Below are positions 28,045 through 29,135 of a DNA stretch of 64,000 nucleotides, piece after piece. The position numbers were made by a program, and so were the translations under genes. This stretch comes from Escherichia coli (lineage in GTDB: Bacteria > Pseudomonadota > Gammaproteobacteria > Enterobacterales > Enterobacteriaceae): the NCBI RefSeq assembly GCF_011045215.1, contig NZ_CP049201.1; one strand, written 5' to 3'. Position 1 is the stretch's first letter. Each line of letters begins with the position of its first letter. The notes under the pieces are model-generated. The model worked only from the letters and a program-made list of their open reading frames with translations, was not told the origin of the DNA and ran no database searches.

Positions 28045-28120
28045 GACGGATAAGGCGTTTACGCCGCATCCGGCAATTGTGCGCGGATGCCTGATGCGAC
28101 GCTGACGCGTCTTATCAGTA
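28045..28120. repeat. REP element
   Basis: GGCGTTTACGCCGCATCCGGCA...TGCCTGATGCGACGCTGACGCGTCTTATCA. Confidence 0.6.
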
Positions 28121-28220
28121 TCTACAAATTTGTGCGTTTTTGCGAGCTGCTTTCCCGTTATTCCATCACCTCATTGTCGACCTTTCCTTTTCCTCTTACC
28201 GTTGAGAAAAAGGAGTCGCT

Positions 28221-28718
28221 ATGTCGGAATATCGTCGTTATTACATCAAGGGGGGAACATGGTTTTTCACGGTAAATTTACGGAATCGTCGAAGCCATCT
28301 TCTGACCACCCAGTTCCAGACGCTCCGTAACGCCATTATTAACGTTAGGCGAGACAGACCTTTTGAAATTAACGCCTGGGTCGTTTTGCCGGAGCATATG
28401 CATTGCATATGGACATTACCCGAAAGCGATGATGATTTTTCCTCTCGCTGGCGGGAGATTAAAAAGCAATTCACCCATGCTTGTGGATTGAAAAATATCT
28501 GGCAACCGCGTTTTTGGGAGCATGCCATTCGTAATACAAAAGACTATCGCCATCATGTTGATTATATTTATATAAATCCAGTGAAACATGGTTGGGTAAA
28601 GCAGGTGAGTGATTGGCCATTCTCAACGTTCCATCGCGATGTAGCGCGAGGGTTATATCCCATCAATTGGGCGGGAGACGTTACGGATTTGAGTGCCGGG
28701 GAGCGTATTATTTTATAA
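28221..28718 (+). CDS. rayT: REP-associated tyrosine transposase RayT (IS200/IS605-like HuH)
   Basis: 165 aa, HuH motif region (PEHMHCIW), flanked by REP clusters. Confidence 0.85.
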   Translation: MSEYRRYYIKGGTWFFTVNLRNRRSHLLTTQFQTLRNAIINVRRDRPFEINAWVVLPEHMHCIWTLPESDDDFSSRWREIKKQFTHACGLKNIWQPRFWEHAIRNTKDYRHHVDYIYINPVKHGWVKQVSDWPFSTFHRDVARGLYPINWAGDVTDLSAGERIIL

Positions 28719-28719
28719 T

Positions 28720-29135
28720 TGTGCGCTGGTGCCGGATGCGCTTACGCTTATCCGGCCTACAAATCTGTGCCTTAACGGTAGGCCGGATAAGGCGTTTACG
28801 CCGCATCCGGCAGTTGTGCGCAGATGCCTGATGCGACGCTGACGCGTCTTATCATGCCTACAAACCTGTGCCGGATCGGTAGGCCGGATAAGGCGTTCAC
28901 GCCGCATCCGGCGGTTGTGCGCAGATGCCTGATGCGACGCTGGCGCGTCTTATCATGCCTGGAAACCTGTGCCGGATCGGTAGGCCGGATAAGGCGTTTA
29001 CGCCGCATCCGGCAATTGTGCGCAGATGCCTGATGCGACGCTGGCGCGTCTTATCATGCCTGGAAACCTGTGCCTGAACGGTAGGCCGGATAAGGCGTTC
29101 ACGCCGCATCCGGCAATTGTGCACCGATGCCGGAT
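28720..29135. repeat. cluster of REP/BIME elements (at least 5 tandem units)
   Basis: Repeated TAGGCCGGATAAGGCGTT(T/C)ACGCCGCATCCGGC and TGCGCAGATGCCTGATGCGACGCTG(A/G)CGCGTCTTATCATGCCT units. Confidence 0.75.

Follow-up and report, generated by a model that had tools for sequence, protein, structure and literature searches.

Identification of the REPtron locus

We analyzed a 64,000-nucleotide stretch of an Escherichia coli genome (contig NZ_CP049201.1 of RefSeq assembly GCF_011045215.1; hereafter the window, 64 kb in total), focusing on the gene rayT and its surrounding repetitive extragenic palindromic (REP) sequences. We are highly confident that this locus is the E. coli REPtron, i.e., the presumably single-copy, domesticated HUH/Y1 transposase gene rayT (also named yafM or tnpA-REP) together with the bacterial interspersed mosaic elements (BIMEs) bordering it. 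Its site is fixed between yafL and an flhA-like Flag-2 remnant; a single BIME stands to its left, a tandem BIME-2 array to its right. The locus, its single left BIME and the variable number of repeats on its right were already known from work published in 2010-2012. Strain-specific content is limited to a right array that is longer than usual and carries two units without the tetranucleotide GTAG.

The name REPtron was given by Ton-Hoang 2012, in whose survey 74 of 110 strains had the element, placed between yafL and fhiA (PMC3333891). Its left side was invariably a single BIME and its right side varied in number, and two routes of loss were described, namely precise excision in B2 strains and replacement by hicAB in B1 strains (PMC3333891). 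Nunvar 2010 had likewise reported E. coli rayT (yafM) as delimited by Y and Z2 palindromic units, with BIME-2 on both sides (PMC2817692). The window has the arrangement by which the REPtron was defined: tnpA-REP between yafL and fhiA/flhA, one BIME on the left and the side of variable number on the right (PMC3333891). A megablast search against 5,426 complete E. coli genomes placed the segment at the yafL, rayT, flhA-remnant site. Thousands of E. coli genomes carry a rayT annotation at this syntenic yafL/flhA position, and the three loci that were fetched agree with this. Nothing that we found contradicts the identification, and the caveats discussed below touch the mechanism.

The first-pass annotation of this DNA had named the gene a REP-associated tyrosine transposase (RAYT), and three matches bear this out. 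The rayT open reading frame (ORF) scored 176.7 bits (E=2.4e-52, cut-off 80) against the NCBIfam equivalog NF047646 (REP_Tyr_transpos). A PDB sequence search returned 4ER8 ('TnpArep', E=1.2e-111) with nine substitutions in 164 aligned residues (approximately 95% identity), and strain ET350 has a RefSeq-annotated RayT (WP_069913669.1) to which the product shows 100% identity. A Shine-Dalgarno sequence, AAGGAG, lies 6 nt upstream of the ATG. The HUH motif (H59-M60-H61), the catalytic tyrosine (Y115) as well as the extra metal ligands of helix alpha-D (N119 and H123) are all present, and the DNA contacts named in PMC3479197 (R78, K82 and R97) are conserved; the catalytic, metal-binding and DNA-contact roles of these residues are taken from the same study (PMC3479197). 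RAYTs carry a C-terminal extension of about 25 aa with a conserved auto-inhibitory glutamate, which the IS200/IS605 transposases do not have. In the window protein this glutamate, E161, is found in ...DLSAGERIIL, and the alignment to 4ER8 is full length (1-164). The nine differences from the K-12 protein are Q26H, Y32F, M34T, H37N, K41N, K43R, G69S, D149N and F157L, none of which falls on a catalytic, metal-binding or named DNA-contact residue of the K-12 protein.

REP units and the architecture of the array

To detect REP sequences, we made small hidden Markov models (HMMs) from the units in the window itself and scanned its full length with them. Ten full REP hairpins were identified at the locus, two on the left of rayT (28041-28125) and eight on the right (28730-29115), together with a truncated stub (Table 1). 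The first-pass annotation had counted at least six REP units of alternating orientation flanking rayT. Six is true as a lower bound but understates the ten units that the HMMs detect, and the repeats do lie on both sides of the gene, although with an asymmetry (two versus eight) that the word "flank" does not convey. The alternation proved to be strict: in the unit table, the tetranucleotide precedes the hairpin on the + strand in all five Y units and on the - strand in the five others. The REPs themselves are confirmed by the repeat finder and the HMMs. The limits that had been assigned to the array, 28045-29135, correspond to the first stem base after the GTAG and to the end of the Tandem Repeats Finder match.

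Table 1. Features of the REPtron locus, in the coordinates of the 64-kb window
Feature	Position	Strand	Description	Evidence
yafL	27295..28044 (start inferred from annotated length)	+	C40/NlpC-P60 peptidase gene, left flank, 750 nt	Pfam NLPC_P60 E=3.5e-32; syntenic annotation
Left REP 1	28041..28075	+	Y type, 5'-GTAG and hairpin	HMM 45.3 bits; single-stranded DNA (ssDNA) fold -9.0 kcal/mol, z=-2.7
Left REP 2	28088..28125 (HMM start 28086/28088)	-	Z2 type, GTAG on - strand	HMM 44.6 bits
rayT (yafM / tnpA-REP)	28221..28718	+	165 aa, HUH Y1 single-strand DNA transposase homologue	NCBIfam, PDB and RefSeq matches
Right REP 1	28730..28760	-	Short 31-nt Y-like variant	HMM 14.9 bits; ssDNA fold -10.6 kcal/mol, z=-4.0
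Entire tandem BIME-2 array	28747..29135		Period 101, 3.9 copies	Tandem Repeats Finder: 93% matches, no indels
Right REP 2	28778..28812	+	Y type	HMM 46.8 bits; fold -12.2 kcal/mol, z=-4.5
Right REP 3	28825..28861 (HMM start 28823/5)	-	Z2 type, GTAG intact	HMM 49.0 bits; - strand fold z=-3.9
Right REP 4	28879..28913	+	Y type	HMM 44.6 bits
Right REP 5	28926..28962 (HMM start 28924/6)	-	Z2 type, CCAG replaces GTAG	HMM 48.3 bits
Right REP 6	28980..29014	+	Y type	HMM 46.8 bits
Right REP 7	29027..29063 (HMM start 29025/7)	-	Z2 type, CCAG replaces GTAG	HMM 48.3 bits
Right REP 8	29081..29115	+	Y type, last full unit	HMM 45.8 bits
Truncated REP head	29126..29136		GATGCCGGATT, 11 nt	Alignment of units; repeat family
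flhA-like gene (lfhA/fhiA)	29138..30860 (end approximate)	-	Flag-2 remnant, right flank, convergent with rayT	Pfam FHIPEP E=5.7e-189

The enrichment of these motifs is pronounced. The Y-type motif GTAGGCCGGATAAGGCG, allowing up to two mismatches, occurs seven times in the window against 0.01 expected, and the Z2 core five times against 0.00 expected. With 9.3 REP/kb, the local density exceeds the genome-wide mean calculated from published counts (PMC3333891) by a factor of 75-108. The repeat finder recovered a 77-nt family with five copies (starting at 28041, 28778, 28879, 28980 and 29081) as well as a 187-nt family at 101 bp spacing. Elsewhere in the window, confident REPs are confined to a small BIME-2 cluster at 24712-24848, in which three further units (Y, Z2, Y) lie closely upstream of a yafJ-like ORF (24895-25677).

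On the left, REP 1, a 12-nt linker and REP 2 make up the single BIME. For the crystals of Messing 2012, the K-12 enzyme was combined with a 32-mer oligonucleotide representing the left BIME's first REP (PMC3479197), and positions 28041-28072 of the window are identical to this 32-mer, GTAGGACGGATAAGGCGTTTACGCCGCATCCG, as co-crystallized with TnpA-REP in 4ER8. The TAG stop codon of yafL (28042-28044) is itself contained in the GTAG (28041-28044) of this first REP. In left REP 2 the stem foot is degenerate, reading GTAGATAC in place of GTAGGCAT.

On the right, the short Y-like unit begins 11 nt past the rayT stop, and the same variant is found in strains ET350 and 88-3493. It is followed in order by Y, Z2, Y, Z2, Y, Z2 and Y, giving four Y-containing units and eight REPs in total. 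The two linkers, of 10-12 nt and 17-18 nt, alternate and are both conserved among the array copies in the unit alignment. The junction sequence at right REP 7 also occurs in strain 88-3493. The truncated REP head stops 1 nt short of where the convergent flhA-like gene has its stop codon, with the same junction in K-12, and 23 nt separate the last Y unit from the flhA coding sequence both in the window and in the K-12-type locus (L001). It was also observed that, at 28716-28740, the TAA stop of rayT directly precedes the conserved linker motif ATTGTGCGC, whose usual place is the gap separating a Y from a Z2 unit; it looks as though rayT lay within a BIME array.

GTAG is retained in eight of the ten REPs, the remaining two being the CCAG-bearing Z2 units. 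As GC-rich imperfect palindromes 30-40 nt long, the folded units each give a hairpin that contains the internal two-base mismatch, with an internal loop setting off an inner stem from the outer one. Their ssDNA folding energies are -7.1 to -12.2 kcal/mol and their z-scores -1.6 to -4.5; the weakest z-scores belong to the + strand of Z2 units. Reading outward from rayT, the innermost REPs on the two sides (28088-28125 and 28730-28760) have their GTAG on the - strand, and the Y units next to them (28041-28075 and 28778-28812) have it on the + strand, so that one inverted pair stands on each side of rayT. The unit sequences match the Y and Z2 forms listed for the flanks of K-12 rayT (PMC2817692). 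The literature is not uniform in its nomenclature, since Nunvar 2010 (PMC2817692) speaks of Y/Z2 and the legend of Figure 1 in Messing 2012 (PMC3479197) of y/z1. This conflict is one of names, not of sequence, and by their sequence the window units fit Nunvar's Z2 form.

The array also yields a ladder of overlapping repetitive ORFs of 43-75 aa on both strands (28613-29157), e.g., MPDATLARLIMPGNLC..., with a counterpart at positions 2313-2657 of one fetched locus (L003). One such ORF is annotated as a 'hypothetical protein' (WP_124072110.1) in strain UID2309220026. These short ORFs inside the array are almost certainly artefacts of the repeats.

Comparison with other strains

The K-12 MG1655 REPtron (PMC2817692; PMC3333891; PMC3479197, PDB 4ER8) shares with the window the locus, the gene and the Y/Z2 unit types, as well as the first REP of the left BIME (32 nt identical), the flanking junctions and the catalytic and DNA-contact residues. 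It differs on the right side, where the window array has eight REPs instead of four and is approximately 200 bp longer, and where the first REP is a short Y-like variant in the window and a Z2 unit in K-12. Moreover, unlike K-12, the window contains two Z2 units with CCAG for GTAG and a left Z2 unit with a degenerate stem foot. Counted as left plus right, REP numbers are 2+4 in K-12, 2+4 in ET350, 2+8 in UID2309220026 and 2+8 in the window.

To place this length among E. coli strains, 60 records were sampled at even spacing, and the yafL-flhA interval was measured in the 28 of them that spanned it. The span was 1196-1204 bp in 18 of the 28 records, 1298-1300 bp in four and 1125 bp in three, and single records had spans of approximately 1103 bp, 1173 bp and 1398 bp. 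The 1401 bp of the window lies at the long end of this range, in a length class represented by about 1 of the 28 sampled records.

Units are 94-95% identical within the window array and 90-97% within that of UID2309220026, and only 79-86% between the two arrays. Since units are more alike within than between these long arrays, the window and UID2309220026 arrays appear to have expanded independently and locally, which is in line with the published model. The idea that the CCAG allele of the Z2 unit is unique to the window lineage was rejected, as the same allele is present in strain 88-3493. A 61-nt probe containing CCAG had no exact genome match, and its best match (59/61) was in that strain, with both mismatches in the linker. 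In the same strain the first Y unit of the right array (approximately 850-900 of locus L004) is internally deleted (…CAAATCTGTGCC|GCATCCGGCAG…), which represents a further mode of array variation beside the gain or loss of whole units.

Proposed mechanism of RayT at the locus

For the K-12 enzyme, the chemistry has been worked out in detail. The protein is monomeric and binds REPs that are folded into single-stranded hairpins (PMC3479197). Both the 5' GTAG and a two-base mismatch in the stem are needed for binding, and GTAG is needed for cleavage as well (PMC3333891, PMC3479197). In Mn2+, which is preferred, the enzyme cuts CT dinucleotides in adjacent inverted REPs and in linkers (PMC3333891, PMC3479197), forming a covalent 5'-phosphotyrosine intermediate through Y115 (PMC3479197). 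In vitro, K-12 TnpA-REP carries out cleavage and strand transfer that gives extra tandem BIME units (PMC3333891).

Because these determinants are conserved, the window RayT is predicted to work by the same chemistry, and the repeats on its flanks would be cognate substrates standing beside their enzyme. The earlier proposal of such a substrate and enzyme arrangement is supported at the level of sequence, the units being Y/Z2 BIME-2 elements as PMC2817692 and PMC3333891 describe for this locus. All five Y substrates on the + strand are intact, having both GTAG and the stem mismatch, and the positive cumulative GC skew together with the K-12 map orientation suggests that this strand is the lagging-strand template. 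Rejoining of strands by RayT could produce extra or variant BIME units. The right array would gain or lose whole 101-bp units within lineages, either through strand transfer by RayT or through host recombination or slippage.

A more specific scenario is that the long right array, with four units against two in K-12 and ET350, records a recent lineage-specific amplification through Y REPs on one strand. Confinement to the Y REPs of one strand, the + strand, would follow from the loss of GTAG in the Z2 REPs of the extra units. We consider this scenario unlikely. If it were true, the window strain and its closest relative ET350, whose RayT protein is identical and which has two right-hand units, would constitute a natural test of one-strand versus two-strand models of RayT amplification and of both versus unequal crossing-over.

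A possible role of the REPs at the RNA level

The locus was also matched by the Rfam family naRNA4 (RF02564). On the + strand, four matches were obtained with 69.3, 80.7, 77.9 and 85.5 bits (gathering score 59.5), one on the left (28044-28121) and three on the right, each covering a Y-Z2 pair on the rayT-sense strand. The cluster near 24.7 kb is matched as well (74.1 bits at 24715-24792). Judged by sequence, these matches reflect the BIME-2 consensus, which is essentially what the family model describes. REP325/naRNA4, the BIME-2 cluster of the yjdM-yjdN operon, belongs to the same tandem BIME-2 sequence family as the Y-linker-Z2 pairs of the window. Unlike REP325, the window array sits between convergent genes beside rayT.

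The role of naRNA4 in nucleoid compaction is disputed in favour of a terminator/stabiliser role in a recent preprint (bioRxiv 10.64898/2026.03.23.713779). There, REP325 is reported to cause no nucleoid compaction, to be an attenuator that depends partly on Rho and to stabilise mRNA, and REPs located between convergent genes are reported to correlate with higher expression of both. In the window, the convergent rayT and flhA remnant enclose the right array, and yafL is closely followed by the left BIME. By analogy, an attenuator/stabiliser role at this locus is plausible: transcribed as 3' hairpins of yafL, rayT and the flhA remnant, the REPs may well serve as local transcription attenuators and as protectors of mRNA 3' ends.

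Points against the proposed mechanism and alternative explanations

Several observations weigh against the activity proposed above. REP binding and ssDNA cleavage have been demonstrated for the K-12 protein only (PMC3333891, PMC3479197), and since the allele here differs from it by nine substitutions, its activity is a prediction from sequence. Since GTAG is required for binding and cleavage, three units are predicted to be non-substrates, and the two CCAG units (28926-28962 and 29027-29063) and the unit with the degenerate foot (28088-28125) are thus probably not used by RayT. E. coli RayT is auto-inhibited by its C-terminal tail and weakly active (PMC3479197), and the presence or absence of the gene makes little difference to the REP numbers of strains (PMC3333891). 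For these two reasons, RayT-driven amplification in vivo is unproven. On the RNA side, a simple consensus scan of 27800-29400 found no sigma-70 promoter and no intrinsic terminator consensus. As the REPs have no U-tract, the null result for terminators neither supports nor excludes a terminator role, and both this role and the expression of rayT are presumptive.

Auto-inhibition and the similar REP totals are equally what one would expect if the number of 101-bp units were changed by host processes, namely RecA-dependent unequal crossing-over or replication slippage, with the adjacency of rayT a historical leftover. Consistent with this, strains that lost tnpA-REP retain their BIMEs (PMC3333891), and the tandem units, free of indels and 94-95% identical, are ideal for unequal exchange. 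One unit of the array (d2) looks chimeric, its Y side and linker resembling unit d1 and ET350 and its Z2 side (TGGC loop, CCTGG end) resembling unit d3 and strain 88-3493. Furthermore, the CCAG unit does not have the GTAG that RayT binding requires and is yet present in two copies. However, strand transfer by K-12 TnpA-REP does yield additional tandem BIME units in vitro (PMC3333891), and the + strand Y REPs bounding every 101-bp unit keep both GTAG and the stem mismatch, so that RayT could act via them alone. We therefore regard an exclusively host-driven origin as a real possibility that nevertheless falls short of an even chance. The two routes are not mutually exclusive, and amplification through RayT is compatible with concurrent recombination by the host.

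Another reading would treat rayT as an autonomous element of the IS200/IS605 type, an insertion sequence (IS) that moves as a unit with the REPs as its subterminal hairpins. The layout is indeed IS-like, a Y1-transposase homologue between inverted hairpins that each carry a 5' tetranucleotide, and the RayT core resembles that of IS608 and ISDra2 in its HUH and Y1 residues, its imperfect ssDNA hairpins and its 5' guide tetranucleotide (PMC3479197). The family scores are nevertheless too weak. No Pfam family was detected in the rayT ORF at the default threshold, at E<=10 Y1_Tnp alone appeared with 15.1 bits (cut-off 23), and the NCBIfam IS200 model scored 13.2 bits (cut-off 55). RayT is monomeric and the IS200/IS605 transposases are obligate dimers (PMC3479197); RayT also differs from them in its auto-inhibition by the C-terminal extension (E161), in its preference for Mn2+ (PMC3479197), in that CT suffices at the cut site and in that it does not move its own gene. 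Only one rayT copy is present in the window, at a species-specific site that is the same yafL/flhA position in every genome carrying the gene (74/110 strains in PMC3333891). An IS200/IS605 insertion sequence was thus rejected on family scores, copy number and fixed locus, and is very improbable.

The repeat periodicity had also been flagged in the first-pass annotation as something that could be mistaken for a CRISPR array. This resemblance, a regular spacing of short palindromic repeats, turned out to be superficial, and we assign a CRISPR array a negligible likelihood. REP units alternate in orientation instead of being direct repeats, the 101 bp period spans a pair of them, and the segments between them are two conserved linkers with no unique spacers in the unit alignment. 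The E. coli type I-E CRISPR repeat is absent from the 64-kb window even when three mismatches are allowed, and the adjoining genes are yafL, rayT and the flhA remnant, none of which is a cas gene. Orientation, conserved linkers, the missing type I-E repeat and non-cas neighbours were the grounds on which this candidate was rejected.

With these alternatives weighed, the REPtron identification stands. It can also be compared with the REP doublet-forming hairpin (REPIN)-RAYT systems that Bertels and Rainey described in Pseudomonas and other bacteria (PMC3116915, PMC3337134). These likewise combine a single-copy RAYT with cognate inverted REP doublets, the repeats being spread genome-wide in trans. 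Compared with E. coli, they have a RAYT of another group and another REP sequence, and their REPINs are mainly isolated doublets, in contrast to the multi-unit tandem form of BIME-2 (literature comparison).

Flanking genes and other features of the window

The FHIPEP match of the flhA-like gene covers profile positions 99-656 of 657, indicating that the N-terminus is missing, and FlhA is annotated as incomplete in K-12-type genomes. Within the Flag-2 cluster remnant (29138-31607), the corresponding ORF was found to be without approximately the first 98 profile positions and joined to an unrelated N-terminal sequence. An OmpA-family (lafU-like) fragment overlaps it on the opposite strand, and K-12-type genomes have the same deletion scar.

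Other neighbours include the dinJ-yafQ toxin-antitoxin pair, identified by Pfam, and further on dinB. Across the dinB region, identity to nearly all of the E. coli genomes lies at 95-99%, with 98.8% as the best value among the matches listed, so that the window strain has no exact counterpart in that collection. Here dinB is apparently followed directly by yafP (31678-33700). The best single-piece matches are genomes without yafN-yafO, and in genomes containing yafN/yafO the match is broken into 2-4 pieces, the extra sequence amounting to about 760 bp or more. By this comparison, the yafNO toxin-antitoxin module seems to be absent from the window.

In the region from 42044 to 43297, a tRNA-Thr(CGT) gene (thrW) is directly followed by a tyrosine integrase gene (42134-43297, - strand), and phage-type genes continue up to approximately 62800, including a KAP-family NTPase (54094-55425) and a large terminase (59671-61404). 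This region is probably a prophage integrated at thrW. The region 4000-18200 has a low GC content (0.44-0.47) and a strong positive GC skew (up to 0.157). It encodes a type VI secretion system (T6SS) VgrG protein (7212-9611) as well as a Tle1-like phospholipase effector (13347-15440), and an IS transposase of the rve family lies at 17121-18143. The region is likely to be a horizontally acquired T6SS effector island.

Significance of the locus

Taken together, the locus is a textbook case of a domesticated single-strand transposase beside its repeat substrates, whose structure, biochemistry and strain variation have all been published, and it has little importance beyond correct annotation. For annotation, the array should not be taken for a CRISPR array nor the short ORFs inside it for genes, and the Rfam naRNA4 matches at the locus simply flag BIME-2 units. 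As a strain marker, the count of 101-bp units changes fast, and the strain analyzed here lies at the long end of its range.

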